Shown piece after piece: positions 2,044-58,059 of a stretch of 64,000 nt of DNA (position 1 is the stretch's first letter; every line of letters begins with the position of its first letter). Position numbers and translations under genes: made by a program. The notes below the pieces were generated by a model. That model was not told the origin of the DNA. It did no database searches and saw nothing but the letters and a program-made list of their open reading frames with translations. The stretch lies in IMG/VR virus record IMGVR_UViG_3300013426_000020. One strand, given 5' to 3'. The DNA is from a virus (taxonomy: Duplodnaviria; Heunggongvirae; Uroviricota; Caudoviricetes).

Positions 2044-2087
2044 CTAATTTTTATTCTGTCAAATAAAAAAAAAATTATTACAAATTT

Positions 2088-2708: not shown

Positions 2709-2821
2709 ATTACATAAATAATTTGACATCACTCGGAGAGCGTATGTTCTGGTTGACCGCATTACCGTAAATGCGGTATTTTTATGTTTATTGAAGAAAT
2801 ATAATTTGTTATTTTTGAATT

Positions 2822-3871
2822 ATGAAAAAGTTTATTTTTATTTTATTGAGTCTGTTTATGGTACAGTCATGTTTTATAAATGACATAAGAACAGACTATG
2901 AAGGAAATCAGGTCATATCTTTTGAGCCTATTTCAAGAAAACAACACACAAGATCAACACCTTTATCAAAGTATGAATCTACAACAGGAGACTTTGCGGT
3001 CTTTTCATGGTATCAAAGGGGGACTGGAAGTTTTGATCCTGTCAATAATGATGTTGTACTTTATATGGACAATGTTGTATGTTCATATGATGAGATAAAT
3101 GGAAAAGGAACATGGATGCCTGTTACCACTTATTTTTGGCCAAAGAATGGAAAACTCACATTTTCTGCATATTATCCTGTTGGTGATGTGTTTGCTCCTA
3201 ATGTAAATGTGGATACAAAGACAGGATTGAAATTCAATGATTATAACATTGCAAATGCTGTTGATCAGAAGGATTTGATGTTCAGCTCAAGAACATATGA
3301 TAAATCTGCATCTATACATCCAGATGATTTTATTACAACTTATGATGGAGTTGATATATTGTTCAATCATGCTTTGTCAGCAATTTCTTTCACAGTGAAA
3401 TCAAGGGATGATTATAATGGTGTATTACTTTTGAAAAGAATTGAACTTATTGATGTGAAACACAAGGGTTCATTTGATGAGAATCTGACAGATGGATATG
3501 CAGTTAACAAGTCAGTCTGGTCTGTTGATGATGATAATGTTGATTATAAGATATATGAATCAACAGAAACATATGGAACAATAATTGATATGTCTGGTGT
3601 TGTATTCACAGATGCAAATACAGGTATAGTTCTTCCACAGGTTTTTGATGACAATGCAAAGATAAGAATTACATATTACATCAAATATGGTACAGACAAA
3701 TATCTTGAACAAGTCAATGATGTGAAGTTGAAGGATTTGAAGAAGGATGGACTTGTTTCACTTGATGCATGGGAAATGGGAAAATGGTACAAATACAATA
3801 TCACATTTGGTCTGGATCAGATTTATTTTGCACCTGCTATTGAAGAATGGATTGATGTAATTGTACGATAG
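2822..3871 (+). CDS. putative lipoprotein / secreted protein
   Basis: N-terminus MKKFIFILLSLFMVQSC is a signal peptide with a lipobox-like Cys; 349 aa. A TTTGTTATTTTT motif lies just upstream. Confidence 0.6.
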   Translation: MKKFIFILLSLFMVQSCFINDIRTDYEGNQVISFEPISRKQHTRSTPLSKYESTTGDFAVFSWYQRGTGSFDPVNNDVVLYMDNVVCSYDEINGKGTWMPVTTYFWPKNGKLTFSAYYPVGDVFAPNVNVDTKTGLKFNDYNIANAVDQKDLMFSSRTYDKSASIHPDDFITTYDGVDILFNHALSAISFTVKSRDDYNGVLLLKRIELIDVKHKGSFDENLTDGYAVNKSVWSVDDDNVDYKIYESTETYGTIIDMSGVVFTDANTGIVLPQVFDDNAKIRITYYIKYGTDKYLEQVNDVKLKDLKKDGLVSLDAWEMGKWYKYNITFGLDQIYFAPAIEEWIDVIVR

Positions 3872-3900
3872 TCATAAATACATAAAACAATTTATAAGTT

Positions 3901-4113
3901 ATGAACGAATTATCAAAGAATAATCTTATATGGTTCGGTAAGGTGCTTGCATTTGCACTGCCTGTATTCTTTGCAATAATCACATTTGCAGGAATTCTCA
4001 ATGGAATAGTTTCCGGTGGAATTGATTCCTTTTATGGATATGTGGCAGCTTTGAACATAGGTGTTGAAGGTTATTTGTTTTATAATCTTTATAGGAAGTT
4101 ATTCAAGAAATAA
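3901..4113 (+). CDS. small membrane protein
   Basis: 70 aa with two hydrophobic segments. Confidence 0.45.
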   Translation: MNELSKNNLIWFGKVLAFALPVFFAIITFAGILNGIVSGGIDSFYGYVAALNIGVEGYLFYNLYRKLFKK

Positions 4114-4121
4114 CTTAGTTT

Positions 4122-4211
4122 GGAAGATTACCCAAGTGGTGAAGGGGACGGTTTGCTAAACCGTTAGATCGGTCAATTACCGGTGCGGGGGTTCAAATCC
4201 CTCATCTTCCG
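4122..4211 (+). tRNA. tRNA-Ser (anticodon GCT), class II
   Basis: Acceptor ggaagat/atcttcc, discriminator G, anticodon stem acggt/accgt with loop ttGCTaa, long variable arm, T-loop GGTTCAAATCC. Confidence 0.75.
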
Positions 4212-4317
4212 CAAATTATACAATGTTTTTGGTTCAGGGAATGTATATGTCCCTTGAGTGTTCTTATGGACGCAAATGAATCGGAGACAGTTAAATACAA
4301 ATAAAATTTAATGAAGT

Positions 4318-5513: not shown

Positions 5514-5536
5514 AGAAATTCAGTCATTTTTTTTTT
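5508..5536 (+). terminator. Rho-independent terminator
   Basis: Hairpin gactgaa...ttcagtc followed by T10. Confidence 0.6.
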
Positions 5537-5543
5537 GAATTTA

Positions 5544-5575
5544 TTTGGAAGTTTGAAATTTTGTTCATATCTTTG
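5544..5575 (+). promoter_or_regulatory. Bacteroidota sigma-A type promoter (class A cassette): -33 TTTG / 20 nt / -7 TATCTTTG
   Basis: TTTG at 5544, TATCTTTG at 5568, spacing exactly 20 nt. Confidence 0.55.
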
Positions 5576-5643
5576 CATCAAGAAAATAAAACATCAACTT
5601 TTTACTTCAAGTCCGGAAGGATAAATACAGGACAAAAGAAAAA

Positions 5644-6882
5644 ATGAACAGTAAGGAATTCATCAACAAGTATGGTTCAGAAGAACTGAAGGCGACAAGT
5701 AATTTTGCAACCAAGTCATTGGGAGTGAATTATGATGTCAAGGATGCATTTATTGAATTCGGTGATAATGCATATGACAGTAGAATCAAAAATTCAAGAC
5801 TTGAATTCAACATCAGTATTGATTCAGAAAAACACACTATCATATTTTATGACAATGGTTCCGGCATCAAGGATGATACCAAGCTCTTTCTTCTTGGTGG
5901 AACAAATAAGGAAAGCAATAAAAACAAGATAGGTAAATATGGTATAGGTGTTCCTGGTGCAACTGCTGCCATCGCAACACAGTGCAAGTTTGATAAAAAT
6001 GAAATTGTGGAAGCAATATTTGAATCTGCAAGTGATGGGAAGTCATTTATCAAACATACGGCATTTATGCCTAATGGTGAAATGATTAATGGCAAGACTG
6101 TTTATGGGACATGTGATAAGTCAAAACATTTCACAAGACTTACATTTACGAATGTCTCAATTGGTTCCACATCATCAATCATTGATTCGATGGAAGAAAT
6201 TTTTGAAATACCACTTCACAGAAATATGGACATCATTTTCAATGGAAGAAAACTGGGTATGTCAACCACACCTACATTTATAGGTGATGAAATTCCAAAG
6301 ACAATAATGGTTGGAAGTATTCCAGTTGAAGTGAAATATAGAATTATTGGAGGAAACAAATCTGATGATTCGCGTGCATTGAAGGAAGCAGGCTTGAGAA
6401 TTTATGACAAGAATAGTGGAAGACTTCTTGCAAAAAGTCAGGAATTGTGGAAATGGTTCTGCAACAAACAGGCATTTCAGGATATTTGCGGATGCCGTGC
6501 TGGAATATTCATTGACAGTACAATTGATGCATATAAAAAATTTGGTATCAAATCATCAAAGAATGGAGTAACATACAGATTGTATTGTCAGGATCCAGAC
6601 TTCAAAGATCTTGCAGATGAACTGAAAGTAATTTATGGTGTAGCATTATCAACAAATTGTAGCAACAGGATTTCAAATGTTGATGCTATTATAAAGGGAT
6701 CTAGAAAATTTCAGATTTCACCTTTGAAGATAAATGGTCTTTATCTTGAGGCATCAAAAAATGAATACATTATCAAGAAGAAATATTCACAGGATGAAAT
6801 TGTAGGTATGATAGATACCATCATTGATCTTCAGAATAAGTTGAACAGAAAAACAAAAAAGTCAAAAACAGCAGAAGCATGA
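5644..6882 (+). CDS. GHKL-superfamily (HATPase_c / MORC-like) ATPase
   Basis: Bergerat-fold motifs: N-box EFGDNAYDS, G1 YDNGSGI, G2 GKYGIGVPGA. Confidence 0.7.
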   Translation: MNSKEFINKYGSEELKATSNFATKSLGVNYDVKDAFIEFGDNAYDSRIKNSRLEFNISIDSEKHTIIFYDNGSGIKDDTKLFLLGGTNKESNKNKIGKYGIGVPGATAAIATQCKFDKNEIVEAIFESASDGKSFIKHTAFMPNGEMINGKTVYGTCDKSKHFTRLTFTNVSIGSTSSIIDSMEEIFEIPLHRNMDIIFNGRKLGMSTTPTFIGDEIPKTIMVGSIPVEVKYRIIGGNKSDDSRALKEAGLRIYDKNSGRLLAKSQELWKWFCNKQAFQDICGCRAGIFIDSTIDAYKKFGIKSSKNGVTYRLYCQDPDFKDLADELKVIYGVALSTNCSNRISNVDAIIKGSRKFQISPLKINGLYLEASKNEYIIKKKYSQDEIVGMIDTIIDLQNKLNRKTKKSKTAEA

Positions 6883-7589
6883 TGACATCTTTTTCAATAA
6901 CATCATCAAAAAAGGATGATGACTTGCTGACAACAGTAAGTGAAAACATATGCAAAGACTTGAAAGATAAATATCTTTCAAGTCTTCCAGAGACATGGAA
7001 TATTGAATGTGGAAACAAAAAACTCAATTTTGATGATATAAAAACTGCTCTGGTAGATTCAGGATTATCAGAAAATAAGGCATCAAAATACTATGGTCTT
7101 GCAAGTGGAATTGAGACAGATTCACATATAATATATCTCACCATCAAGAAAGGAGATAGAATCATCAAGAAACCATTGTTTATGGGAGAGATGAAAAAAC
7201 AGGGAACAAATGACAGAAGACTTGCAGAAGGAAAGTTAAAACAGGCCATAGGTAATGCCGCTGGAGACAGGGTTGCAAAGAATTTCCTGATTTCATCTGA
7301 TTATTGTTATACATGTGATAGGGAGTTTTTTCCATATAATGTATATCTTCATGGATGTGATTTCAATGAAGATATGACAAACACAATGAAGGCAAAACTA
7401 ACTCCCCTGTTTGGAACTTTGAATAGGATAAATCCATGGTTTGATAAGGATATGCTCATATATACTGCTGGACATAAAGGTGGGAGTTGTTTCTATCAGA
7501 ACAATGACTTCACATATAAGCAATTATATGATTTGTGTTATGAATGTTGCAGGATAGGTATTGAGCATTATCTTGAAAAATATAGATAA
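6879..7589 (+). CDS. Cys-rich protein, putative PD-(D/E)xK nuclease partner of the GHKL ATPase
   Basis: Its start overlaps the stop of the upstream gene (ATGA). Candidate D...ExK core: IIYLTIKKGD then 11 aa then GEMKK. Cys clusters CYTCD...HGCD and CYECC. The CDS itself is clear; the function is inferred. Confidence 0.5.
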   Translation: MMTSFSITSSKKDDDLLTTVSENICKDLKDKYLSSLPETWNIECGNKKLNFDDIKTALVDSGLSENKASKYYGLASGIETDSHIIYLTIKKGDRIIKKPLFMGEMKKQGTNDRRLAEGKLKQAIGNAAGDRVAKNFLISSDYCYTCDREFFPYNVYLHGCDFNEDMTNTMKAKLTPLFGTLNRINPWFDKDMLIYTAGHKGGSCFYQNNDFTYKQLYDLCYECCRIGIEHYLEKYR

Positions 7590-7876: not shown

Positions 7877-9007
7877 ATGATGGAGAACAATTTTTTTCTC
7901 ACCGATCAGATAATAACATATATAGGAAACAAGCGGAAGCTTCTCAATGACATAAATCTGGAAGTTGAACACATACTCAAGGAACTTGGTATTCAAAAAG
8001 GAAAATTGTGTGATTTGTTTTCCGGAAGTGGAATTGTAGCCAGATCAGTGAAGAAATATTCAAACATGCTTTATGTGAATGATTTGGAAAAATACAGTTG
8101 CATAATCAATGACTGTTATCTTACAAATAAAGATGAGTTTGATGAAATAACATATAATACATATCTGGATAAGATTTTGGATTTTCCAGAAGTCGAAGGA
8201 ATAATAACAAAAAACTATGCTCCAGAAGATGATAATGACATAAAATATGGAGAAAGAGTATTTTACACACATGATAATGCTGTTATTATTGATACCATAC
8301 GTACTGCAATAGATGAATATGTTCCAGATGAATATAAGAAGTTCTATCTGGCTCCATTATTATATGAGGCATCAATACATACAAATACAAGTGGAATATT
8401 CAAAGGATTCTACAAGTCAAAGGAGACTGGTATAGGCAAATTTGGTGGTGATGGGGAGAATTCATTGTCCAGAATATGTGGAAAGATTTCATTGAAGAAA
8501 CCCATATTTTCAAATTATGACTGTAATAAGATTATCTTGAATGGGGATGCGAATACTGTGGCAAGAACATTAAAAAATCTTGACATAACATATCTTGATC
8601 CTCCATATAATCAACATCCATACAGTTCAAATTATTTTATGCTGAATACTATAATTGAGAACAAGATTGGTGATAATTTGAGTAAGGTTTCAGGTATTCC
8701 AGAAGACTGGAACAAATCAAGTTATAATAGAAAGAATAGTGCATTGAAATCTTTTGAAGATCTTATATCCAATCTTGATTCAAAATATATGATAATCTCA
8801 TATAACAATGAAGGAATCATATCATATGATGATATGTGTAATATGCTTTCAAAATATGGAACAGTGGAGATAAACAATATAGAATATAATGCTTTCAAGG
8901 GAAGTCGCAATTTGAATGGAAGAGACAAACACACAATAGAATATTTGTTTGTCTTAAAAAAAGACGGACCAAGAAGAATTATCATAAAAAATGAAGGACT
9001 TTTTTAA
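7877..9007 (+). CDS. N6-adenine DNA methyltransferase, Dam/D12 class
   Basis: Motif X YIGNKRKLL, motif I FSGSGIV, motif IV DITYLDPPYN, in the alpha-class order. Confidence 0.85.
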   Translation: MMENNFFLTDQIITYIGNKRKLLNDINLEVEHILKELGIQKGKLCDLFSGSGIVARSVKKYSNMLYVNDLEKYSCIINDCYLTNKDEFDEITYNTYLDKILDFPEVEGIITKNYAPEDDNDIKYGERVFYTHDNAVIIDTIRTAIDEYVPDEYKKFYLAPLLYEASIHTNTSGIFKGFYKSKETGIGKFGGDGENSLSRICGKISLKKPIFSNYDCNKIILNGDANTVARTLKNLDITYLDPPYNQHPYSSNYFMLNTIIENKIGDNLSKVSGIPEDWNKSSYNRKNSALKSFEDLISNLDSKYMIISYNNEGIISYDDMCNMLSKYGTVEINNIEYNAFKGSRNLNGRDKHTIEYLFVLKKDGPRRIIIKNEGLF

Positions 9008-18312: not shown

Positions 18313-18609
18313 TTGAGAAGAACTGATATAAATAATTTATCAGTTCTTCTTTTTTTGTTATCTTTATTTCAAAATTATAATTATGAAAAAACCGGATATA
18401 GAGAAGATTATGATAGGTGGATATGTCACGGACTTTGATTTCAAGTCCGGAAATATGAAAGATTTCAATGCATGACAGATCATTGAGATGCCAGTGAACA
18501 TATGGACTCGTGAAAAAAATATATGGAACATACAAGGCATTGTCATATATGCAATATCTGGAATGTCTGAAAGAAAAGGACAAATTTTTGAAATAAATTA
18601 TTCTTATAT

Positions 18610-19557
18610 ATGGATGCTGTTATAACATTTGTAGATTCATCCGATGAAGTATGGATGAGAAATATGCTGAAAGGATACACACAGGAAGGTAATACATCAA
18701 ATCATGTACTCGCAACATTTACAAACAAGGGAAACTCAATGAGATACAATTTCTTCTATGATTATGGTACACTAAAATATGTATTAAGGGGTATAGATAA
18801 GTTTATACCATATGTGAAGAATGTTTTTCTTGTAGTGAGTAACATAGAACAGATACCGGAATATGTTGATTTGTCAAAAGTCATTCCTGTATTACATAAG
18901 GATTTCATTCCTGAAAAGTTTCTTCCCACATATAACTCAACAACAATAGAGATGTTCCTGAACAGGATACACGGTCTTGATGATGAATTTGTATATTTCA
19001 ATGATGACATGATTCCTGTGAATCCCATAGAATATAATGAACTCTTCAGAGATGGAATCCCATGCATAAATTTTGAGGAGAACAATAGAGATCCCCATTA
19101 TATGACATACAGACACTGCAATATATCATTCGGTGAAGCGAGGAACAGTGTTGAGATGACAGGAAAAGATATTGATTATTCCGGTCCGGTGATGATACCT
19201 GTACATAGTCCAGTGTCGATGTTGAAATCTGTAATGGATGAATATGCTAATCAGGAAAGATTTTCAAGTATGCTCGACTTCTACATAACATCCACACGTC
19301 AAGGAAGAAATCTCACACAGTATTACTGGAGTGACATTCTTTTCTTCCTAAAGAAATATGTTCAAAATGATAACCTGACATTGAAATATGTCTGGACATA
19401 TGACCTTGACAACTTTAATGCAGGTGATATAGGTGACTGTAAATATCTGTGCATAAATGATTCGGCAAGAAAGAACAAACCATTGAGTGAGACAGAGACC
19501 GAGATACAGAATATGATGAACAGAATATTACCTGAAAAGAGCAGATATGAGAAATGA
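18610..19557 (+). CDS. Stealth-family (CR1/CR2) putative hexose-/polyol-phosphate transferase
   Basis: CR1-like DAVITFVDSSDEVW and CR2-like YFNDDMIPVNP. Confidence 0.45.
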   Translation: MDAVITFVDSSDEVWMRNMLKGYTQEGNTSNHVLATFTNKGNSMRYNFFYDYGTLKYVLRGIDKFIPYVKNVFLVVSNIEQIPEYVDLSKVIPVLHKDFIPEKFLPTYNSTTIEMFLNRIHGLDDEFVYFNDDMIPVNPIEYNELFRDGIPCINFEENNRDPHYMTYRHCNISFGEARNSVEMTGKDIDYSGPVMIPVHSPVSMLKSVMDEYANQERFSSMLDFYITSTRQGRNLTQYYWSDILFFLKKYVQNDNLTLKYVWTYDLDNFNAGDIGDCKYLCINDSARKNKPLSETETEIQNMMNRILPEKSRYEK

Positions 19558-20515
19558 TATGATGACTGACTGGGATGTGAAGAAGGCATATCAGGAAACT
19601 GTCAAACCCATCTTCTTTCCCGTAATATTCATAGACCGATACTGGGACTACTATATGAAGTTGTTCGGTCAGGAAAAAAAGTATAAGGAATTCAAGGAAA
19701 TGTTTAAGTCTGGGGGGTTCACATATTGTTCATATATGGATGAATATAATGACACCACATACAGATGTGCGGAAAAACAGTTGACAGAAAATCAGTCCAC
19801 AGTTCATAATATGATAAAATCCTATGTTGACAGAAACATAACCGAAAATACCGGAAATCTGTTTCCAAAACTGAACAGTTATGACTTTCCTGACGGAAGA
19901 TACTTGCAGGTGGATTTGCACAATGCATTTGATGAAGCATTGAAGAATGTGGGTGTGTTCAATCCAGACTATGAATCAACGGATGAAATCATAGATGATG
20001 TCTCGAAATATGACATATTCAAAAATATGAAGAAGTTGAGGTTATCGGTATATGCATATAACAACTCCACACAAATGAAGGAACTGTTCTGTATATGTTC
20101 AGATGAAATACTGAAGAAAGTATATCTGTCTGAAGATGACCTTATGAAACATTTGCGGGAAAGATATCATAAAGGTGTGAGAAGTTCAGGAGATATGTAT
20201 ATGTATGAGATAGGTTATGACTGTGTAGATGAAATCACAGGAGACCATATGATTGACGGTATATCTGTAAATATGTCAGTGGTTGAAATAAAGACTGTAT
20301 ATCTGTTCGGGAACAGATGCAAGATTCAATTTATACCGGGTTCATCATTGACTGACTATGTACTCGGATGGTCAAGACACAATATACTCCCCCCGGAACT
20401 GTCTCCACTGCTGTTGAGAATAGGAAGAAATGAAGAACCGACAAAAATGGATCTTGCCATAGGGAATGAGGACAAGATCTACTTTCACCTAAATAAAAAT
20501 GATTATAAGATATGA
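19547..20515 (+). CDS. hypothetical protein, tandem paralog A
   Basis: 322 aa. Shares N-terminal (...DRYWDYYMKLFGQ...) and C-terminal (EMDLAIGNEDKIYFHLNKNDYKI) blocks with the next gene. Confidence 0.55.
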   Translation: MRNDMMTDWDVKKAYQETVKPIFFPVIFIDRYWDYYMKLFGQEKKYKEFKEMFKSGGFTYCSYMDEYNDTTYRCAEKQLTENQSTVHNMIKSYVDRNITENTGNLFPKLNSYDFPDGRYLQVDLHNAFDEALKNVGVFNPDYESTDEIIDDVSKYDIFKNMKKLRLSVYAYNNSTQMKELFCICSDEILKKVYLSEDDLMKHLRERYHKGVRSSGDMYMYEIGYDCVDEITGDHMIDGISVNMSVVEIKTVYLFGNRCKIQFIPGSSLTDYVLGWSRHNILPPELSPLLLRIGRNEEPTKMDLAIGNEDKIYFHLNKNDYKI

Positions 20516-21468
20516 AGAAAATATTGACTATGACAAACTATATGTCCAAGGTTTCATATGCCGCGGTGAATTATCCTCTCGGTTTTCCGATGATTCTCGC
20601 GGACAAATACTGGGACTATTATATGAGTCTTGTAGGACAGACAGACAAATGGAACAGGTTTATGAACCTGTGGAATGAGGAGGGATTTGAAACCTATGAC
20701 CAGTTCATAACAGAATTCAATGAAGTTGCAAAAAAGTCTGCAATGTTGATGTTCAATGGTTCGGTGGATGAATCCGTAAAGAAATTACATGAATATGCAG
20801 AAAATTCAAAGGAATGGGAATTCCCGACAAAAATACAGAATAATCTCAAACCAGGAAAATATATAAAGGTTGATATACATTCATCAGTGGATTATGTCCT
20901 GAAGGAGATAGGTATATTCAATGATAAATATGATTCTCTTATGGAAATAATAAATGGTCAATCAAAATATGAAATATTCAAAGATATAAAACTGATGAAA
21001 TTCAGAACACTGAAGTTCAATGGAATAAATAATCATCCGGATATAAAAAAAATATCAAGAAGTATAATATTGAAGAAGATATATGAATCAGGTCTTCCTG
21101 AAATAGATATATTCAACAAGTCTTGCAGAAATGTATTTGTGTCAGGGAATGATATGTATCTGTATGAACTTGATAATCCGGATGAATTTGAATATTTGTG
21201 TGGGGATTATATTACGGATAATGGCATAAGTTTCAACATTTCAATGTTCAAAAATATGTGTGTTCAAATTATGGACAGTCAATATAATTTCTCAATAAAT
21301 TTGTCAAAGAAATATGTAGATTATGATTTGAGAAATTATCCGAAATATTTTATACCACTTATGATAAGACTTATAAAGGGTGAACATCCTACAGAAATGG
21401 ATCTTGCCATAGGTTATGAGGATCAAATATTCTTTCATCTGAATGAAAATGACTATAAAATCCTGTAG
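20512..21468 (+). CDS. hypothetical protein, tandem paralog B
   Basis: 318 aa. Contains ...DKYWDYYMSLVGQ... and ends EMDLAIGYEDQIFFHLNENDYKIL. Confidence 0.55.
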   Translation: MKKILTMTNYMSKVSYAAVNYPLGFPMILADKYWDYYMSLVGQTDKWNRFMNLWNEEGFETYDQFITEFNEVAKKSAMLMFNGSVDESVKKLHEYAENSKEWEFPTKIQNNLKPGKYIKVDIHSSVDYVLKEIGIFNDKYDSLMEIINGQSKYEIFKDIKLMKFRTLKFNGINNHPDIKKISRSIILKKIYESGLPEIDIFNKSCRNVFVSGNDMYLYELDNPDEFEYLCGDYITDNGISFNISMFKNMCVQIMDSQYNFSINLSKKYVDYDLRNYPKYFIPLMIRLIKGEHPTEMDLAIGYEDQIFFHLNENDYKIL

Positions 21469-22452: not shown

Positions 22453-22484
22453 TGCAGGAAATGAATTTCCTGCATTTTTTTTTT
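22453..22484 (+). terminator. Rho-independent terminator
   Basis: Hairpin tgcaggaaat/atttcctgca followed by T10. Confidence 0.6.
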
Positions 22485-22491
22485 GATTTTA

Positions 22492-22523
22492 TTTGGAAGT
22501 TTGAAATAATTGTCGTATCTTTG
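22492..22523 (+). promoter_or_regulatory. class A promoter with conserved leader
   Basis: TTTGgaagTTTGaaataattgtcgTATCTTTGtatcaacaaataaaaacaaagacatttATG. Confidence 0.55.
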
Positions 22524-22550
22524 TATCAACAAATAAAAACAAAGACATTT

Positions 22551-25147: not shown

Positions 25148-25341
25148 GCAGGACCATAAAACATCAGGACATATATGATGTCCTGCATGGAAGAAAAGTT
25201 TCTTACAGAAAGAGAATGAAAATATATAAATGGTTTGACAGAGTGAACTTTTGGGATCCCGACTTCAAGATAAACTACAGAAAGAGAAAGGACTGGAGAC
25301 ATGGCGGAATGTCCCGGATAAAGGCAAGGAGATACAAATGA
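25144..25341 (+). CDS. hypothetical basic small protein
   Basis: 65 aa, K/R-rich. Confidence 0.4.
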   Translation: MSRTIKHQDIYDVLHGRKVSYRKRMKIYKWFDRVNFWDPDFKINYRKRKDWRHGGMSRIKARRYK

Positions 25342-26063
25342 TTACATCAAGGGAGCACAGAATAGAGATATTGAATGAGAACATCAATATCTGCAATGAC
25401 AAGAATTTGAAACCAGAATTCCGGGGTGGACTGGTGTTTGGACCTACACATGTAGCATGTGCGGAAAATTTCATCAGGGAGGATGGTGATGAATATGACA
25501 GGTCGAGAGTCATATTCGAGCAAACCGACACGATAACATCCGCACTGAAATACAGAAGAAAAACAGGTGTTGACTTTCTTGTGTTCGCATCGTCCAGACA
25601 CTATGGCGGCGGGGTGTGGAACGGATCAAAGGCACAGGAGGAGGACATTTTTCTCTGCACCGATCTCTGTATGAATCATAAGGATGCACAGGAGAAATTC
25701 TATCCGTTGAACGGATGTATGACAATGGACTGTCATATCATCAGGGACTCGAATTTTGAAGTTCTGAAATATCCTGTCAATGCAAGGGCTTTCTTCTGTC
25801 CGGCACCAAATCTCAACTTGACAAATTCTGGTCATGACTTCTGGACAAGGATGTGTACATTTTCTGATACGACTTTTGACTATGCGAAGGGGGAATGTCT
25901 GGTGATAGGCGCATGGGGATGCGGAGTGTTCAAAAACAATCCTGAAGAAGTTGCGGATATGTTCAGGAAATCAATGTCCATGTTTCTGGAAGACTACAGG
26001 AATGTGGTTGTGTCCATACCTGATGAAAATATGTTAAACATATTCAAGAAAAAATTATCATGA
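25338..26063 (+). CDS. bacterial-type poly(ADP-ribose) glycohydrolase-like macrodomain (DUF2263/TIGR02452)
   Basis: PARG signature GGG-X8-QEE (HYGGGVWNGSKAQEEDIF) plus GAWGCGVFKNNPEEVA. Internal ATG of ORF 25251..26063. Confidence 0.65.
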   Translation: MITSREHRIEILNENINICNDKNLKPEFRGGLVFGPTHVACAENFIREDGDEYDRSRVIFEQTDTITSALKYRRKTGVDFLVFASSRHYGGGVWNGSKAQEEDIFLCTDLCMNHKDAQEKFYPLNGCMTMDCHIIRDSNFEVLKYPVNARAFFCPAPNLNLTNSGHDFWTRMCTFSDTTFDYAKGECLVIGAWGCGVFKNNPEEVADMFRKSMSMFLEDYRNVVVSIPDENMLNIFKKKLS

Positions 26064-26670: not shown

Positions 26671-28002
26671 TTGAAAATGAATAAACTGACACTTGAGAAC
26701 ATAAGGATAGAAGACCACAAGATTTATGACACTGACGGAAACTTTGTGGGTGAGATACTGTATGAGTATATTCGTGGTTCACGTTTATACAATATAAATC
26801 TTGAAGGATTCGATTCTGACGGCAATCCGCTTTCGGATGAAGATCATGGCGGAGTCTATATAATGACCGACAACAGGAAACTTGGTCTGGGACTTGACTA
26901 CCAGAACGAGATAAAGGATGAGAAGAATGACAACTGTCTATGGGAACTGGGCAGGTTTATGGAGCTTGCACTGACTTCCAACCCGACCGTTCTTGAAGCT
27001 TTGTTCGTTCCGGATGACAAGGTGATATATGAACATCCTGTGATGAAGGAGTTGAGGAGTCACAGGAATGAGTTTGTCTCGAAGGCGTGTTTCAAGCCTT
27101 ACTATATGTACTCTAAGAGTCAAATTTCCAAATCCAGAGGACAAAACAAGAAGATTCACTGGGACATCGAACAGATGAAGAGAAAGACTCCATTGGACTT
27201 CTGTTATACTTTCAAAGGTCAGGGATCCCAACTCATATCCGACTGGCTTGATGAGAATGGACTTGAACAGAGAAACTGTGGACTGGTGAATGTCCCGAAC
27301 ATGCCTGATATGTATGGAGTATATTATGACTGGGGTCAACATTTCAGGTTGAATGATATTGATATGATGAAATTCAGGGACAGTGACGAATATGAGAAGA
27401 TGAGACATTTCATTTCTTGTTTTTATTTTGACGGATATGCAGATGACTACAGTCTGGAGATATGGTACGAGAAGAATTCTGTCCCGAAGGGAGGATATAC
27501 AGGTATCATATCTCAAAATGAGGACTCCAACACCATAAGATACTGTTCTATTCCTGATAAGAATGAAAGACCGGTATGTTATATGTCATACAATGCCAAT
27601 GGATACGCGACACATTGCAGAAAATACAAAGAATATCTTGATTGGAAGAACCACAGGAACAAGGCGAGATACGAGTCGAATCTTGAAGGAGAGAAGTCCG
27701 GAAATCCGGATCTCATGTATGACTCCAAGAACATGATGCACTGTTTCAGGATGATTTCCATGGCGAAGGAGATTGCGGAAGGAAAGGGAATAATACTCGA
27801 CAGGACAGGAATCGACAAAGATTTCCTTATGGATGTGAGAATGAGAAGGTACGGTTATTCCGAACTGATGAAGAGACTTGAAAAGATGTCAAGAGAAATG
27901 GATGAGTCCATATGGAACTCAGTAATCAAAGAAAACATTGATCCGGAATTTGTGAACAATCTTCTGCTTGATATAAGAAAACAATGGAGGAAAAATATAT
28001 GA
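26671..28002 (+). CDS. putative pol-beta-superfamily nucleotidyltransferase-fold protein
   Basis: N-terminal RGSRLYNINLEGFDSD matches hG[GS]-x9-13-DxD. 443 aa. Confidence 0.35.
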   Translation: MKMNKLTLENIRIEDHKIYDTDGNFVGEILYEYIRGSRLYNINLEGFDSDGNPLSDEDHGGVYIMTDNRKLGLGLDYQNEIKDEKNDNCLWELGRFMELALTSNPTVLEALFVPDDKVIYEHPVMKELRSHRNEFVSKACFKPYYMYSKSQISKSRGQNKKIHWDIEQMKRKTPLDFCYTFKGQGSQLISDWLDENGLEQRNCGLVNVPNMPDMYGVYYDWGQHFRLNDIDMMKFRDSDEYEKMRHFISCFYFDGYADDYSLEIWYEKNSVPKGGYTGIISQNEDSNTIRYCSIPDKNERPVCYMSYNANGYATHCRKYKEYLDWKNHRNKARYESNLEGEKSGNPDLMYDSKNMMHCFRMISMAKEIAEGKGIILDRTGIDKDFLMDVRMRRYGYSELMKRLEKMSREMDESIWNSVIKENIDPEFVNNLLLDIRKQWRKNI

Positions 28003-33147: not shown

Positions 33148-33189
33148 CGGAGAGAATGTCGTGATGATATTCTCTCCGTTTTTTTTTTG
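33148..33189 (+). terminator. Rho-independent terminator
   Basis: Hairpin cggagagaat...attctctccg followed by T11. Confidence 0.6.
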
Positions 33190-33207
33190 AAAAAAGTTTG
33201 ATTTTTG

Positions 33208-33239
33208 TTTGGAAGTTTGAAATAATTATCTTATCTTTG
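33208..33239 (+). promoter_or_regulatory. class A promoter
   Basis: TTTG at 33208, 20 nt, TATCTTTG at 33232. Confidence 0.5.
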
Positions 33240-33265
33240 TATCAACAAATAAAGGCAATGACATT

Positions 33266-41135: not shown

Positions 41136-41174
41136 GTTGAGGGTCTTGAGAAAAAGATCCTCAACTTTTTTTTG
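41136..41174 (+). terminator. Rho-independent terminator
   Basis: Hairpin gttgagggtcttgag...gatcctcaac followed by T9. Confidence 0.6.
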
Positions 41175-41191
41175 AAAAAGTCTGACTTTTA

Positions 41192-41223
41192 TTTGCATGT
41201 TTGAAATAATTGTTGTATCTTTG
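41192..41223 (+). promoter_or_regulatory. class A promoter
   Basis: TTTG at 41192, 20 nt, TATCTTTG at 41216, plus the canonical leader. Confidence 0.5.
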
Positions 41224-41363
41224 TATCAACAAATAAAAACAAAGACATTATGAAAAAGGTTAACATTACAATCAACACATCATCAGACAAAATGATTGAA
41301 TCACTCCGGAATCTGGCGGACTTCATAGAGGAGAATATGGAGATGTAATAGATTAAACATAAA

Positions 41364-45608: not shown

Positions 45609-45666
45609 GATTTTCCTGCGGAGACGGATGCGGAGAAAAAGAAATTGAAAGAAATTCAAAGTTTTT

Positions 45667-45698
45667 CTTGGAAGTTTGAAAAAATTGTTGTATCTTTG
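45667..45698 (+). promoter_or_regulatory. class A promoter (-33 variant CTTG)
   Basis: cTTG at 45667, 20 nt, TATCTTTG at 45691. Confidence 0.45.
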
Positions 45699-45724
45699 TA
45701 TCAACAAATAAAAACAAAGACATT

Positions 45725-47302: not shown

Positions 47303-48020
47303 ATTCATAATTTTTGTTTTTGTTTGCATGGAAGATCAGGAAGTGATTCTTGATCTTCTTTTTTATACACAACAGGATACAACAAACCGGGACTGACTCA
47401 AATCATTTGAAAAAAGACTGAACCAGACCAGAATTCACCGGTCAATAAACCAGAAGCAAGTATGTGATTATAAACTATTTACTGGAAAAACTGTAATTGA
47501 CTATGAAAAACTGTAATCAAGTTATGATATTTGATATCAAGAAATCAAACTATATGACTTTATTTTTGACTTGTATGAAAACTGAATGACGATTATGAAA
47601 CTCACATATGATTATATGAAACTATGATGATTATAAAGATCATATACACTATGTAACTCACACAAAAGATTTTGACTAACAAAACTTATATGGACTATAA
47701 ACTATGTTGCGATGCGAAACTTACGGAAAAACTATATGACTGAAAAATGAACCGATTGATTATACTATATAACTGATGCAAATAAACTTCATTGACTTAC
47801 AAACCGACTATATCGACTATCATACTGATGTATATAAACTTTCCGTTCAACTATTATATTTATGTGATCGACATTTTCAGTTTTTCATATTTTCTTTGAA
47901 TGTTTCAAAACAGACATTTTTCACATTTCAAGAATTTTTTCCTAAAGGGATTTTTCAAAAATGGTCAGTCAAGAGTGTACTAAAAGGGACATTTCATATA
48001 TTTCATAAAAAAGTTCATCA
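47303..48020. repeat. non-coding AT-rich region with short direct repeats (iteron-like)
   Basis: gaaaaactgtaat occurs twice (about 47480 and 47504), aaactatatgact occurs twice (about 47548 and 47730), and there are many tatgaaa/ctatat units. No ORF. Confidence 0.4.
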
Positions 48021-48024
48021 AAAA

Positions 48025-48056
48025 TTTGGAAGTTTGAAATAATTGTTGTATCTTTG
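48025..48056 (+). promoter_or_regulatory. class A promoter
   Basis: TTTG at 48025, 20 nt, TATCTTTG at 48049. Confidence 0.5.
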
Positions 48057-48082
48057 TATCAACAAATAAAAGCAAAGACATT

Positions 48083-51543: not shown

Positions 51544-51989
51544 TATAATCTAATATAATTCTTAAATATTTTTCTTTTCAACAGGGAACAGATGTGATAT
51601 CTCTTCCCTGTCTTTTTATGTATTCGTCTCCACAGTTCGCTTCCGTCTCGTCAATTAGTATCTCATATAGGAAGACCGATGGACAGACAGGGAAGGAAAC
51701 TTGAGGATCCTGGTCACCATGGTCTGATCCTGGAGGAAGACATTTACCGGTCCAGTTATCCTGTTGAGACACAGCAGGTTGAGTCATGAATGTCAGGTCA
51801 GGAGATGGGATATTGACAGAACCATGGACACATGCAGTCATGATCATGTACACTGTGTATACTGTATACATGATTATTGGACATAACTGGACAGAGATGA
51901 CTGATGACAATGCGCATTTTTCTCCGCGAGATGAAACCTTTCATAGAAAAAACTTTGACAAGTTTATGATGAATCATATTGATATGGGG

Positions 51990-52520
51990 AGATGTAATGG
52001 AGATCTGTGAAATTTTACTGGAAAATTTTACTGGAAAAACTGTAAGATGCTGAAAAAACAGTAAAATATTGGGAATTTCTTTATATTGAAAAGAAGGAAT
52101 ATGGAAAATATGGACAAAATTCATATATGAAGAAAATGCAGAAATATAAAAAAATTGTGAAAACTGAAAAAACAGGAGAATAGGTATTTTTCCTGCGGAG
52201 ACGGAAAATGGAGAAAATGACGGAAAATGGAGATATGAGAAATATGGAAAATATGGATATATGACAAAATGCAGCATGATCAGGAAATGGGAAAATGGAG
52301 ATATATGGGGAACTGGTTGAAAATGTGCCGATTCTGGAAATAGGGAAATTTCTGCATTTGGGAAAATTGGAAAATAAGCAAATTTGGTCATTTTGGAGAA
52401 AATGGTGAATTTTGGTCTATTTTGACCTATTTTGGCATTTTTGGAGAAAATGGTGAATTTTGGCAAATTTGGTGATTTTGGGAATGTGGTGGAAATTGCA
52501 CAAATTATGAACACATGTTT
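51990..52520. repeat. degenerate GGAAAAT / TTTTGG short-period repeat region
   Basis: Many ggaaaat(g/a) units. Exact 23-nt direct repeat ttggagaaaatggtgaattttgg at about 52393 and 52441. No credible ORF. Confidence 0.5.
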
Positions 52521-53003
52521 GATCTTGCTCACATTTTTGCGGATTCCCCGGGACTTGTGCCGGACGGAGTGATTTTCATACAAAATACGGTTCATATATA
52601 TTCATAACCATTATATTCAGTCATAAGACTTGTGTATCAATAACTTATATATAACTTATTGATTGTCTTGAACTATATGTTTATATGATTTTGATAAAAT
52701 ATGTCTCGGATGTCGGGAATATGTCAATAGGTCTGTCATATATTCATACTTTCCTGCTCCTTATGGGCACAGAAGGACGGTCTTGGACAATGACTATCAA
52801 TCCATATTGTAAGAAGTGATATGCATTGAAGAAATAGGAATCCGGACAATATGCCGGTATGTCGGAATGTATGACAAGTGTATCATTTAATACATCTGCA
52901 AGATGTTATTTAACATTCATTTGGTTAAACAATATTGGTAGATGGTTATATTATGCAAACAGCCTTGTATAAGCATAAATAAATTCATAAACATTCATTC
53001 ATA

Positions 53004-53501
53004 ATGAGAAAATTAAGCAAGATAACGGAAGGAATTCTCGGTGATATTGCAAGGAGGGATTTGTCGGGAAAGACCAAAATAGAAGACAATGTAAATAATA
53101 TGTCGTTCGAAGACCTCTATTATTATATACTTGATCACTATGAGGTGAAGAACAACCAGTTTGAAATTACTCTTTCAAAAAGACATATTGATGATGTGCA
53201 ATATATTGTTTTTCCTGTCATAAAATTCCGGATGAAGGATATCACCGGCAAAAACAATAAGGAGTCATATATGCAGATGACTCTTGTGGATGAGAAACAT
53301 TTTGTAAGCATAAATAATGATATCCTTTCGTATTGTCCAGACTTTGAAGTGAAGATGGGAAACGGTTATGAATGTGATAATGGGGTAATTGCGATTAAGA
53401 TTCATCCGAAAAACAATAAACTGGACAACAGAACAAGACTTGAACTGATGGACAAGGTCATAGAAGTTCTGGGAGACGACTGCATATTGAAGAAGAAGTA
53501 G
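53004..53501 (+). CDS. hypothetical protein, 'GILGDIARRDLSG' family member 2
   Basis: N-terminus MRKLSKITEGILGDIARRDLSGKTK. Confidence 0.5.
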   Translation: MRKLSKITEGILGDIARRDLSGKTKIEDNVNNMSFEDLYYYILDHYEVKNNQFEITLSKRHIDDVQYIVFPVIKFRMKDITGKNNKESYMQMTLVDEKHFVSINNDILSYCPDFEVKMGNGYECDNGVIAIKIHPKNNKLDNRTRLELMDKVIEVLGDDCILKKK

Positions 53502-53503
53502 TT

Positions 53504-54067
53504 ATGGGGATACTGGGAGACATAGCAAGAAGAGACTTGTCAGGAGGAAAGGCAAAGGAAAGGATATTGCATCCTGAAAATATGAATGAGTTGAGAGAGA
53601 TCATAAGGGGTGAGATAGAGAAACAGGGCAAAAATGTTGATTTGAGACATGTGGTGATTCCTCAAGGATTGAATAAGATGGACTATCTGTTTTTGAACCA
53701 GCATACAGTGGAATCTCTTGATCTTACCGGATGGGATATGACAGATGTAAGGACATTCACAGGAATGTTTGACGGATGCACAAACTTGAAGTCTATAAGG
53801 GGTATTGAAGACTGGAATGTGAATGATGCATATAATTTCTATGAAATGTTTAATGAATGCAGGAGTCTTGAGACGATTGACTTGTCTGGATGGAAGATAG
53901 ACTTTGAACATCCATTTCTGGTTGTTGATGGGATGTTCGCCGGATGCAGGAACCTGAAACTGATAAAGGGGATGATTCACTGGATTCTGTCACAGAAGGA
54001 ATTGCAGGAAATCGGAAGAGGATGTCCCGGGATTCATAGAACTTCGGGAGAGGTCAAATATAAATAA
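53504..54067 (+). CDS. hypothetical protein, 'GILGDIARRDLSG' family member 3
   Basis: N-terminus MGILGDIARRDLSGGKAKE. Confidence 0.5.
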   Translation: MGILGDIARRDLSGGKAKERILHPENMNELREIIRGEIEKQGKNVDLRHVVIPQGLNKMDYLFLNQHTVESLDLTGWDMTDVRTFTGMFDGCTNLKSIRGIEDWNVNDAYNFYEMFNECRSLETIDLSGWKIDFEHPFLVVDGMFAGCRNLKLIKGMIHWILSQKELQEIGRGCPGIHRTSGEVKYK

Positions 54068-54155
54068 ATTAGAGATTGAAATCGAGAAATATTATATGTG
54101 ATGAACATCGAGAGATACATCTTCTCGATGTTTGTTATTTTTATATAAAAAGTTT

Positions 54156-54995: not shown

Positions 54996-55238
54996 ATGAA
55001 GTGGTTTCTTGACAATTTGGTTTATTTTGTGTGGGTGGGTATATTTCTGCTTTTGACAGGAATCTTCATTGACAGTGCATTTCTTTTTCTTACAGGTTTT
55101 ATAGGGTTCTATCTCGGTGTGATATTTGAGGAATTTCCTTATCTGTTCAGGAACGGAAAAAATGAAAATAAAACATTAATTGACATACATATACATACAA
55201 TAAGACATGAAAAGAATTTTGACATACGGAACATTTGA
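54996..55238 (+). CDS. small membrane protein (overlaps tagD start by 32 nt; uncertain)
   Basis: 80 aa with two transmembrane segments. Confidence 0.35.
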   Translation: MKWFLDNLVYFVWVGIFLLLTGIFIDSAFLFLTGFIGFYLGVIFEEFPYLFRNGKNENKTLIDIHIHTIRHEKNFDIRNI

Positions 55239-55614
55239 TCTCCTTCACCCCGGACATATAAATATATTAAGAAAAGCTCGAGAAATGTGTGATGAACTAT
55301 TTGTGGGAGTTTCTACAGATGAATTTTGTATTCAAAAGGGTAAAAGGACAATCCTGAATTATGAACAGAGAAAAAATGTGGTTGAGTCCATAAGGTATGT
55401 GGATTTTGTATTTCCAGAAATGTCTCTGATTGATGACAAGATTTTGGATGGTCTGAACTATGATGCAAATATGTTTGTCTGGGGCAATGACTGGGAAGGT
55501 ACATTTGACTTCTTGAATGATTATGGATTTGAGGTCAAATATTTACCGAGAACCCCCGGGATATCTACTACAGAGATAAAGAACAATATATACAATATAA
55601 AAGATATAGAATAA
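55207..55614 (+). CDS. tagD: glycerol-3-phosphate cytidylyltransferase (TagD-like)
   Basis: TYGTFDLLHPGH (HxGH), VSTDEF, RYVDFVFPE, GNDWEGTFDFLND, YLPRTPGISTTEIK; collinear with B. subtilis TagD. Confidence 0.85.
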   Translation: MKRILTYGTFDLLHPGHINILRKAREMCDELFVGVSTDEFCIQKGKRTILNYEQRKNVVESIRYVDFVFPEMSLIDDKILDGLNYDANMFVWGNDWEGTFDFLNDYGFEVKYLPRTPGISTTEIKNNIYNIKDIE

Positions 55615-55615
55615 T

Positions 55616-56773
55616 ATGGTTGAATTGAAAAATATAAGTCTTCCTGACAATTTCTTTGAAGCAGAGAATAGAAATGATTTTTTAATAGACAGGAAAAAAA
55701 AAGAAGTTTGGGCGGTGCAGTTGGATATTCTTGACTTCTTGAAAAAAATATGTGAGAAATATGATATCGAATGGTTTATCTATGCTGGATCATTACTTGG
55801 ATGTGTAAGAGATGGTATGATAATCCCATGGGATGATGATATTGATGTGTGTATGATCAGAAAAAACTATGACAAGTTTACTGATATTCTGAAGAAAGAG
55901 ATAAAACCCCCGTTTGCTATGGCAGACAAAAGACATGGAAAGTTTTTGAGGATTGTCAGAGAAGACACTATGATGTATTCATCCACATGTATATATGATG
56001 GTATTAAAGGGGGTATATTCATTGATGTGTTTCCACTCGACAATATTCCTGATGACAAGGATGAAAGAAAAGATTATATTGACTCAATATTGAAATATAA
56101 GGGGTCTTATACACCTGATGAGTTTGATGAAATCATGAGAAAATATGATGAAGAGAATACTGATGAACTTATGGATTCTGCAATGATAAGTAAAAATCAT
56201 ATTGATGATATGGTCTACGAAAGGGAGTGGTTTAATGATATGAAGGTGATGAACCTGTCCGGACTTGATGTGAATGTACCTATAGGTTATGAAAAAATAC
56301 TTGAAAAAAAATATGGGATGGATTGGATGACACCCCAGATGAAGAAATCATTTCATGGAAATCAATTCTATGATACAGAAAATTCATACAAGTGTTATTA
56401 TAAGATACCAGATTATGGCAATATTATATTGGTCGATAAGTTTGTGGAGATGATACGAAATGTAAATTCAGTTGTGTATACAGGAAAATTGTTCAAAGAT
56501 TCTGGAAATATTATAATTCCTATGAGTTGTCATTTTGATGACATTAATACATGGCTTTCTAAACTTCCTGAACCATATTCAAAGTTCTTAAATGTCTATT
56601 ATAAAGGAAATAATGAATATGAATATGACATAATGAATAAGAATGGAGACATACTAAAAAAATCCACAAAGGTTCAGGATAAATGTCTTGTTGAATATGA
56701 TGCAATAAATGATGCACTGAATCTTATATTGTCTGATTTTCTTGAAAAAGGAAATATTGACACAGACAATTAG
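55616..56773 (+). CDS. LicD-family phosphotransferase (fukutin-like)
   Basis: YAGSLLGCVRDGMIIPWDDDIDVCM, the LicD signature. Confidence 0.6.
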   Translation: MVELKNISLPDNFFEAENRNDFLIDRKKKEVWAVQLDILDFLKKICEKYDIEWFIYAGSLLGCVRDGMIIPWDDDIDVCMIRKNYDKFTDILKKEIKPPFAMADKRHGKFLRIVREDTMMYSSTCIYDGIKGGIFIDVFPLDNIPDDKDERKDYIDSILKYKGSYTPDEFDEIMRKYDEENTDELMDSAMISKNHIDDMVYEREWFNDMKVMNLSGLDVNVPIGYEKILEKKYGMDWMTPQMKKSFHGNQFYDTENSYKCYYKIPDYGNIILVDKFVEMIRNVNSVVYTGKLFKDSGNIIIPMSCHFDDINTWLSKLPEPYSKFLNVYYKGNNEYEYDIMNKNGDILKKSTKVQDKCLVEYDAINDALNLILSDFLEKGNIDTDN

Positions 56774-56808: not shown

Positions 56809-57159
56809 ATGAAAGATGATAATGTTTATTTGAAGAATGACAATGGAAGATATATACCTTATGGGGTATGTTATCAACCTGAATATCTTCCTGATGGTAT
56901 TTGGTATGTGAGACATACTGATTATGGAAAATCCACAACTTCTGTGAAATATCTTGAAGGTCTTTATAAGATGGGAGATGCAAAGTCCATTGATTTGACT
57001 GAACTCTGTGGAATGGAAGACTTGTGTGATTATATAACCAGATCAAAAGAATTCAAGGAACTTATGAATTCAAAGACTGGATTTTCACCTAATGATATTG
57101 TTCATATCTGTGTGAAGAAACTTGTTGAGAAGGTACAGGATGAAAAAGTTGAGAAATAG
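56809..57159 (+). CDS. hypothetical protein
   Basis: 116-aa ORF. Confidence 0.5.
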   Translation: MKDDNVYLKNDNGRYIPYGVCYQPEYLPDGIWYVRHTDYGKSTTSVKYLEGLYKMGDAKSIDLTELCGMEDLCDYITRSKEFKELMNSKTGFSPNDIVHICVKKLVEKVQDEKVEK

Positions 57160-57812: not shown

Positions 57813-58007
57813 TTATAAATATAGTATATAAAAATTTGAAATCATATGTCTCCTGAAAACCTTTGTCTCAAATGTCACAAGTGTAAGAAATTTGAAGAAA
57901 ACCTGTGTGATGACTTCACTGTTCTTGATTGTCTTGATTCTGATCTTGATGTCAATTTTGTGGAAAATGAAAAAATGGATAAATAATCCATTTTTTTTTT
58001 GATTTTG

Positions 58008-58039
58008 TTTGGAAATTTGAAATTTTGTTGTTATCTTTG
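58008..58039 (+). promoter_or_regulatory. class A promoter
   Basis: TTTG at 58008, 20 nt, TATCTTTG at 58032. Confidence 0.45.
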
Positions 58040-58059
58040 CAGAAATAAAAATAAAGGTC

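Follow-up and report, generated by a model that had tools for sequence, protein, structure and literature searches.

The question raised by this locus is what a phage would build with a cytidylyltransferase gene, tagD, that is directly followed by a gene for a LicD-family phosphotransferase, and onto what the product would be placed. The two genes lie in a 64,000-nucleotide stretch of the Caudoviricetes record IMGVR_UViG_3300013426_000020, here called the window, which is part of a jumbo phage whose relatives' contigs assemble at 217-368 kb. The tagD-licD pair is an accessory two-gene cassette of this jumbo phage, which infects a Bacteroidota host. Going by sequence comparison, its products probably make cytidine diphosphate (CDP)-glycerol and transfer glycerol-phosphate. 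The whole proposal, in which a surface glycan of the host is the target, is put forward tentatively, with somewhat less than an even chance of being right. The two genes are:

55207-55614, + strand: tagD, glycerol-3-phosphate cytidylyltransferase-type, 135 residues (PF01467, TIGR01518, alignment to 2b7l/1coz)
55616-56773, + strand: licD-family phosphotransferase gene, 385 residues; catalytic domain at about residues 1-260 (55616-56395), C-terminal extension at 56396-56770

TagD scores 65.9 bits against PF01467 (CTP_transf_like; Pfam cut-off 21). Of the NCBIfam models, the one for glycerol-3-phosphate cytidylyltransferase, TIGR01518, fits it best (E 2.3e-44, 150.5 bits), with the runner-up model at 65.7 bits. 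It aligns end to end with the structures of S. aureus TarD (2b7l; E 5.7e-40, 57% identity) and B. subtilis TagD (1coz; E 3.6e-39, 54% identity). The motifs defined for the TagD family are HxGH with His14 and His17, RTxGISTT with Arg113, and RYVDEVI at the dimer interface; Lys44 and Lys46 touch the phosphates of CDP-glycerol (PMC8262930). In the phage protein the CTP-binding HxGH motif reads HPGH (residues 14-17), with H14, G16 and H17 invariant among 121 relatives. The other two motifs read RTPGISTT (115-122) and RYVDFVF (63-69), and K44 and K46 are both conserved. In the alignment with these relatives, 58 of the 67 positions of at least 90% conservation are kept, and the changes V4I, I5L and R23K at such positions are conservative. 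TagD is thus predicted to be a cytidylyltransferase with an intact catalytic apparatus, and the sequence-only reading, which had placed a TagD at 55207-55614, is borne out by the profile matches and the catalytic motifs. The search for a donor lineage of tagD singled out none, because conservation within the family is too high. The protein is about 60% identical to enzymes of Pseudomonas, Bacillales and Clostridia alike, and the TagD-family proteins encoded next to LicD in Bacteroidales are only about 40% identical to it.

The stop codon of tagD (TAA, 55612-55614) and the ATG of licD (55616) are separated by a single nucleotide. The sequence-only reading had put a LicD-family gene directly after tagD; the family and the adjacency hold, and its gap of 2 nucleotides is corrected to 1. 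LicD scores 105.9 bits against PF04991 (cut-off 22.6), with coverage limited to about residues 1-260. The Asp cluster I70-P71-W72-D73-D74-D75-x-D77 (PWDDDID) is invariant among 48 sequences including the query, and R82 and H247, invariant in 47 homologues, are kept. A four-Asp motif of Mf1 and LicD proteins has been described (PMC11982090). The AlphaFold2 (AF2) model reaches a predicted local distance difference test score (pLDDT) above 90 over residues 1-260. In the PDB, its 13 best matches are all FKRP (E 1.7e-8 to 7e-8). No transmembrane segment was found in LicD, which fits action in the cytoplasm. From sequence and model, LicD appears to be a soluble phosphotransferase of the LicD/FKRP fold with its Asp cluster intact. 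Residues 261-385 lie outside the coverage of ordinary LicD homologues; this extension is seen solely in the phage cassettes found here, is modelled at too low a confidence (pLDDT 33-74) to be assigned to a fold, and may have a role in recognising the acceptor or a partner. Profile searches, which the sequence-only reading had named beforehand as able to refute it, uphold all three of its family assignments, with matches much stronger than chance would give: TagD, LicD and the Stealth-family protein discussed below.

LicD family members transfer phosphocholine, phosphoethanolamine or ribitol-phosphate (PMC11982090), and the same source cites Imae et al. 2018 for the acceptance of CDP-glycerol by the LicD-family proteins FKTN and FKRP. 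The genes found beside licD bear on the donor. An alignment-based scan of IMG/VR found 160 contigs that encode a LicD relative. In the best 80 of these 160, from which neighbours were counted, ispD lies directly upstream of licD in about 37 loci and a TarJ-like dehydrogenase gene lies nearby in about 27; only one has a tagD neighbour (L055). Among the best 80 bacterial LicD loci, counted for genes within 4 kb, a TagD-family gene occurs in 25 and IspD in 15 (together 40 of 80), in Firmicutes and Bacteroidales alike. Because TagD and IspD genes recur beside LicD in viral and bacterial loci, the neighbouring cytidylyltransferase is taken to track the donor, and by this analogy it is the usual indicator of the CDP-alcohol that LicD would use. 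The nearest LicD homologue, P0002, adjoins IspD and a TarJ-like gene. The claim of the sequence-only reading that TagD makes CDP-glycerol and LicD transfers glycerol-phosphate appears reasonable from the tight adjacency of the two genes and this pattern of neighbours and donors.

The cassette was also looked for in other phages. A protein search with LicD of 50,697 phage records gave distant matches only, at most 35% identical over short stretches, with the best match at 30%. A nucleotide search with the cassette region against these records gave no match, and a single-protein LicD scan of IMG/VR gave no close relative. The pair does occur in three contigs of more distantly related phages, L106 (165 kb), L107 and L190, that have several other genes in common with the window at 39-48% identity. 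Here a 128-residue TagD, 63% identical to that of the window, is followed 4-5 nucleotides on by a 390-residue LicD, and the LicD of L106 is 36% identical to the window protein over its full length, C-terminal extension included. Between L106 and L190 the ratio of nonsynonymous to synonymous substitution rates (dN/dS) is 0.13 for tagD and 0.12 for licD. The pair, with its extension, is regarded as a conserved functional unit because L106 and L190 keep it at these low ratios.

Other relatives lack the cassette. In the 217-kb relative L096 it is absent upstream of the conserved SmpB and TROVE genes. The 345-kb relative L030 (344,746 bp), in which IMPDH, helicase and thymidine kinase are 74%, 73% and 75% identical to those of the window, has no tagD-licD at this site. 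An ispD-licD pair lies instead between its IMPDH and NUDIX genes (L030 5366-6828), which suggests that L030 acquired another kind of polyol-phosphate cassette independently. The relative L105 has tagD without an adjacent licD.

Broken alleles are also found in some contigs with about 99.8% identity to the window; in most assemblies the copies are intact. One tagD allele has a 10-bp deletion (window 55393-55402) in L002 and L003, which are identical across the 12-kb locus with the same end point, may come from one sample and were counted once. A licD allele in L012 has a -1 frameshift in the C5 run at 55906-55910. Taking all pairwise comparisons together, the indels are mostly intergenic, despite a coding density of about 81%. 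Three coding indels clearly disrupt the frame: two fall in the 1.6-kb tagD-licD module, and the third is a 5-bp deletion in the TROVE gene of variant L013.

The sequence-only reading had joined to this module a Stealth protein with CR1 and CR2. The Stealth unit consists of:

18316-18356, + strand: hairpin and T-run before the Stealth unit, 13-bp stem and 9-nucleotide loop, read from the sequence
18610-19557, + strand: short Stealth-family gene (hexose-1-phosphate transferase type), 315 residues, with Stealth_CR2
19547-20515 and 20512-21468, + strand: Stealth partner paralogues of 322 and 318 residues, 35% identical to each other, the first with an 11-nucleotide overlap with the Stealth gene end

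The hairpin was missed by the hairpin scanner because of its 9-nucleotide loop. CR2 is confirmed (PF11380, 93.7 bits; cut-off 39.4). Neither CR1 nor CR3 has a Pfam match at E <= 0.01, and CR4 reaches 17.1 bits, under its 27.4 cut-off. The protein matches the GNPTAB catalytic domain over residues 48-276 (E 5e-14) and CpsY (E 1.7e-11). Residues D2, V4, V8, W15, R60, NDD131-133, H199 and ND283-284 are conserved across 34 homologues. Homologues with 45-77% identity are found on contigs of 248-368 kb, and a search of the 50,697 phage records with the Stealth protein gave no match. The gene and its partner are conserved together in relatives, with one partner copy in L108 and two in L109; L030 does not have the block at the syntenic position.

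The partner family is phage-restricted, with 31 representatives among 1.84 billion proteins, and has no Pfam, PHROG, PADLOC or PDB sequence match. Its AF2 model is confident (pLDDT 92) and weakly palm/RRM-like, and the invariance of D216, D302 and G306 suggests a putative active site. The partner is the least explained item of the window. A PADLOC check for defence and anti-defence systems gave no match for tagD, licD, the Stealth gene or its partner genes. No functional link between Stealth and tagD-licD was found: they are 36 kb apart, and Stealth forms a separate unit with its own partner and varies independently among relatives. The idea that Stealth belongs to the glycerol-phosphate module is therefore not supported.

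The host is well supported as a Gram-negative Bacteroidota, in line with the Gram-negative type that the sequence-only reading had assumed. The assignment rests on promoter-type elements, Shine-Dalgarno depletion, a Mfa-like domain and the Stealth homologues, of which the nearest bacterial ones are from Bacteroidales. The promoter-like elements are intergenic, about 70 nucleotides long, and are found at:

window 5525-5596, 22473-22544, 33189-33260, 41173-41244, 45648-45719, 48006-48077, 57989-58060 and at least nine more places: promoter-like intergenic element of about 70 nucleotides

The copies, at least 16, contain TTTG, then 19-21 nucleotides, then TATCTTTG(T/C)ATCAA, and an ATG lies shortly downstream of each. 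We take the TTTG and TATCTTTG boxes to be the -33 and -7 boxes (-33 TTTG, -7 TAnnTTTG) of Bacteroidota primary-sigma promoters. Host RNA polymerase probably reads the elements as phage promoters of a single temporal class. Few genes are preceded by a Shine-Dalgarno-like motif (8 of 70, fewer than the 18% background), and leaders are A-rich. A Mfa-like fimbrillin domain protein is encoded at window 2822-3871 (PF13149, E 1e-20). The fold is characteristic of fimbriae on the surface of Bacteroidota, and the product could be a virion or cell-surface protein.

The proposed mechanism has three steps. First, TagD would condense CTP and sn-glycerol-3-phosphate to CDP-glycerol, as suggested by the near-complete conservation of the catalytic residues of the characterised enzymes. 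Second, the soluble LicD would use CDP-glycerol to attach glycerol-phosphate through a phosphodiester to a sugar hydroxyl of a glycan at the cytoplasmic face, in keeping with the family chemistry and the adjacency of the genes. Third, the likeliest acceptor would be a lipid-linked repeat unit of the host capsule, O-glycan or lipopolysaccharide, and infected cells would show an altered, more anionic surface glycan. Receptors would then be masked against superinfecting phages, or progeny would be kept from re-adsorbing to infected cells and debris. A host-glycan target is favoured because the cassette is accessory, patchy and repeatedly lost, lies among non-structural genes, comes without assembly or export genes and has a published precedent. 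Susceptibility to phages in gut and rumen Bacteroidota depends above all on capsule and surface glycans.

Several points weigh against this proposal. TagD falls slightly short of the TIGR01518 equivalog cut-off (150.5 versus 165.4 bits), and at positions of at least 90% conservation it carries W74L with a one-residue insertion and Q76D in the W74-x-Q76-K loop, as well as N41C, G28C and K98T. With these deviations and the score below the cut-off, the alcohol-phosphate substrate could differ. The donor specificity of LicD is unreadable from sequence. The third step comes from inference alone, since no priming transferase, flippase or polymerase is found in the window. No integrase is seen in the window and the phage looks lytic, so classical lysogenic seroconversion does not apply. 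The loss-of-function alleles could be a sign of cassette decay in this lineage. Lastly, a large glycan enzyme is encoded about 1-3.5 kb beyond the right end of the window, three genes away from genes for a collagen-repeat tail fibre and a 1264-residue protein. In contig L010 these features are:

L010 4954-7446, opposite strand: 830-residue fusion of GT2/GT92 and polysaccharide pyruvyltransferase
L010 699-2729, opposite strand: collagen-repeat tail-fibre gene, close beyond the right end of the window

The last point leads to the main rival to a host-glycan target, which is that glycerol-phosphate is placed on glycans of the phage's own structural proteins, such as collagen-like fibres, where together with other phage glycan enzymes it would alter adsorption, stability or antigenicity. 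Besides the fusion gene near the collagen-like fibre gene, this explanation draws on at least four glycan-related phage enzymes in the parts seen, which hold no assembly or export genes. Virion glycosylation by enzymes of the phage itself is known from mycobacteriophages. The position of the cassette argues the other way: tagD-licD is on the + strand, outside the opposite-strand structural block, and has no adjacent structural gene. The loss-of-function alleles, found in otherwise near-identical phages, also speak against a role in the virion. Decoration of the virion is rated unlikely, with perhaps the weight of one chance in a handful.

A different chemistry is rather less probable again. 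LicD would use CDP-choline, CDP-ribitol or CDP-ethanolamine, or TagD would activate another polyol- or alcohol-phosphate, and the group transferred would not be glycerol-phosphate. The TIGR01518 score under its cut-off and the five substitutions with the inserted residue at conserved positions are in its favour, as are the other groups transferred by the LicD family (PMC11982090) and the pairing of the closest LicD homologues with IspD/TarJ. It has to contend with the 54-57% full-length identity of TagD to two biochemically characterised glycerol-3-phosphate enzymes and with a next cytidylyltransferase model that scores less than half of TIGR01518. Moreover W74 is kept in the TagD orthologues of L106 and L190.

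The cassette could also be a passenger, captured from a bacterium or another phage and of little or no present benefit in the lineage, which seems improbable. The independent frameshifts in tagD (10-bp deletion) and licD (-1 in the C5 run), the concentration of frame-disrupting coding indels in this one module and the lack of the cassette at this site in L096 and L030 are what such decay would leave. Set against them are the intact copies in most assemblies, the catalytic residues, all of which are intact, and the purifying selection on the orthologous cassette of L106 and L190 (dN/dS about 0.12). In addition, the composition of the cassette is near the phage's own (G+C content 0.31-0.34 versus 0.375 +/- 0.042), and the composition check gave no sign of recent transfer.

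Of similarly low probability is a broader reading, in which a dispersed toolkit would build a phosphoglycan of the phage's own, anionic and resembling teichoic acid, on collagen-like virion fibres or as a polymer in the infected cell, instead of just adjusting a host glycan. Its parts would be Stealth with its weakly palm-like partner, the GT2/GT92-pyruvyltransferase fusion near the fibre gene, and TagD with the extended LicD. If it were true, the Stealth partner would be a new class of enzyme or scaffold. Modification of nucleic acids, with glycerol-phosphate and a Stealth-derived hexose-phosphate put on phage DNA or RNA, is very improbable: both modules lie amid nucleotide-metabolism, replication and RNA-repair genes (IMPDH, NUDIX, helicase, thymidine kinase, RlaP, SmpB, TROVE) and the Stealth partner is weakly palm-like, but no activity on nucleic acids is known to us for any LicD or Stealth family member, genes for a hydroxymethylase or for base hypermodification were not seen, several ordinary DNA methyltransferases are encoded by the phage, natural variants dispense with the cassette, and the DNA-modification idea of the sequence-only reading gained no positive evidence.

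The surroundings of the cassette are as follows. It lies on the + strand amid small non-structural genes and appears to form one unit, predicted from hairpin patterns on either side. The features next to it are:

54098-54138, + strand: terminator-like hairpin upstream of the tagD-licD unit, 17-bp stem and T-run (pattern match alone)
54996-55238, + strand: open reading frame (ORF) of 80 residues that overlaps the start of tagD and has two hydrophobic segments (Kyte-Doolittle average over 19 residues at most 2.31)
56809-57159, + strand: 116-residue ORF between licD and the terminator, dissimilar to the gene after licD in L106
57144-57171, + strand: terminator-like hairpin downstream of the tagD-licD unit, 12-bp stem and T-run (pattern match alone)

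The ORF at 54996-55238 is in the same putative unit and its membership of the module is doubtful. It was considered as a membrane anchor for the cassette and rejected, as it has no counterpart upstream of tagD in L106. The ORF at 56809-57159 has no Pfam, PHROG or PADLOC match of note. Just upstream of the unit, the adjacent genes 53004-53501 and 53504-54067 have the N-terminal motif (E/M)GILGDIARRDLSG in common, and the product of the second has a DUF285/BspA-type leucine-rich-repeat domain (PF03382, E 2.5e-12).

A further motif recurs before many genes:

window 11083, 12580, 18354, 21471, 50231, 54131, 54967, 57169, 59330 and others, + strand: motif TTTGTTATCTTTAT

It occurs 29 times, against 5 expected, typically 3' of a terminator hairpin and 5' of a gene start, and represents a further class of promoter or leader, or else a piece of the terminator-promoter junction. 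Specific co-regulation of the Stealth and tagD units through this common upstream motif was considered and rejected, since its 29 occurrences stand before many unrelated genes.

The window as a whole has about 116 ORFs on the + strand, most of them small and unassignable, at a coding density of about 81%. Near-identical copies of it (about 99.2-100%) are present in many metagenome assemblies, and syntenic relatives at 50-77% protein identity are found on IMG/VR and ENA contigs of 217, 248, 345 and 365-368 kb. Its nucleotide and RNA-repair genes are IMPDH/GMP reductase, NUDIX, a Dda-like helicase, thymidine kinase, RlaP, PARG, SmpB and a TROVE-like protein. The genes with listed positions are:

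window 464-4212: six transfer RNA genes (Tyr-GTA, Thr-TGT, Ser-TGA, Leu-CAA, Glu-TTC, Ser-GCT)
window 25251-26063: PARG-like macrodomain protein
window 26671-28002: RlaP-type nucleotidyltransferase
window 58741-59325: SmpB
window 59371-60951: TROVE/Ro-like protein (DUF2828; phrog_850)

The SmpB, TROVE/Ro-like, RlaP and PARG-like genes form a set for translation rescue, RNA repair and ADP-ribose removal. At window 5644-7589 and 7877-9007, a GHKL-ATPase-like protein and a weak EcoRI-like match adjoin a D12-class N6-adenine DNA methyltransferase. In variants and relatives, different restriction and methylation genes take this place, such as GmrSD_N+HNH and an EcoRI methylase in L109, and the region looks like a variable restriction/anti-restriction hotspot. 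A 265-residue ORF on the minus strand (51798-52595) has a repeat-rich, low-complexity translation, with 40-nucleotide tandem-like repeats in the region (52383-52470). It is probably a non-coding repeat region and not a gene, because genes in the window are biased to the + strand.

How the cassette compares with known systems can now be considered. The sequence-only reading had called such a module unusual for a phage of a Gram-negative host, which is overstated. An adjacent ispD and licD insertion is known from the Bacteroides-infecting 'Flandersviridae' gut phages, for which surface-glycan modification or superinfection exclusion was proposed (Benler et al. 2021, PMC8008677), and LicD relatives are encoded on the 160 IMG/VR contigs mentioned above. 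Viral tagD has been reported as an auxiliary gene (PMC11515562), and Gram-negative capsules use TagD-type enzymes (PMC8262930). As in the Flandersviridae, the cytidylyltransferase gene adjoins licD on the same strand, in a non-structural part of the genome and in only some members of a group of Bacteroidota phages. Unlike theirs, the present cytidylyltransferase is of the TagD type (HxGH/RTxGISTT fold, CDP-glycerol) and not of the IspD/TarI type, LicD is about 30-34% identical with a C-terminal extension of about 125 residues that theirs lack, and the carrier is a jumbo phage.

In bacteria, pairs of TagD/Gct and a LicD-family transferase are routine in loci for capsule, exopolysaccharide or teichoic acid, such as eps2 of Oenococcus oeni (PMC4047060) and the L. 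delbrueckii locus L110. They are of the same two families as the phage pair and often adjacent, and CDP-glycerol serves to add glycerol-phosphate side groups. However, the bacterial pairs sit within complete loci with a priming transferase, flippase and polymerase, whereas the phage pair stands alone, and the best bacterial LicD is about 32% identical. Among the eukaryotic LicD-family ribitol-phosphate transferases Fukutin and FKRP, FKRP (6kal and related entries) is the best structural match of the LicD catalytic domain (E 1.7e-8) and has the Asp-cluster motif in common with it. The identity is about 15%, and FKRP differs in its N-terminal stem domain, its zinc finger and its organisation as a tetramer. 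In nature it takes CDP-ribitol as donor and, as acceptor, the O-mannosyl glycan carried by alpha-dystroglycan.

Precedents for glycan modification by phages include O-antigen seroconversion (gtrABC, oac) and prophage TarP acting on S. aureus wall teichoic acid. They are alike in concept, in that a phage enzyme decorates a host glycan and changes adsorption or antigenicity. They come from temperate phages and are glycosyl- or acetyltransferases, whereas the present phage is probably a lytic jumbo phage that would add a polyol-phosphate. The Stealth family includes GNPTAB, M. tuberculosis CpsY and the capsule polymerases CsaB and CsxA. The phage protein has the CR2 core and the NDD motif of this family but is minimal (about 300-315 residues), with CR1, CR3 and CR4 under Pfam thresholds, falls in a phage-rich clade and always has the partner gene alongside.

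Cassettes of a cytidylyltransferase and LicD have been picked up independently by several phage lineages, with ispD in many and tagD here, which suggests that phages have repeatedly turned to polyol-phosphate decoration to alter the surfaces of cells or virions. With ordinary chemistry and a concept already in print, the cassette adds only incrementally to what is known unless its acceptor turns out to be a surprise. The intact and naturally broken alleles in near-identical phages offer a ready comparison for the benefit of the cassette. Thus a phage cassette of cytidylyltransferase and LicD, viral tagD, TagD in Gram-negative capsules and bacterial pairs of TagD and LicD are already known; new here are TagD in place of IspD, an extended LicD in two diverged jumbo-phage lineages, and null alleles that segregate.

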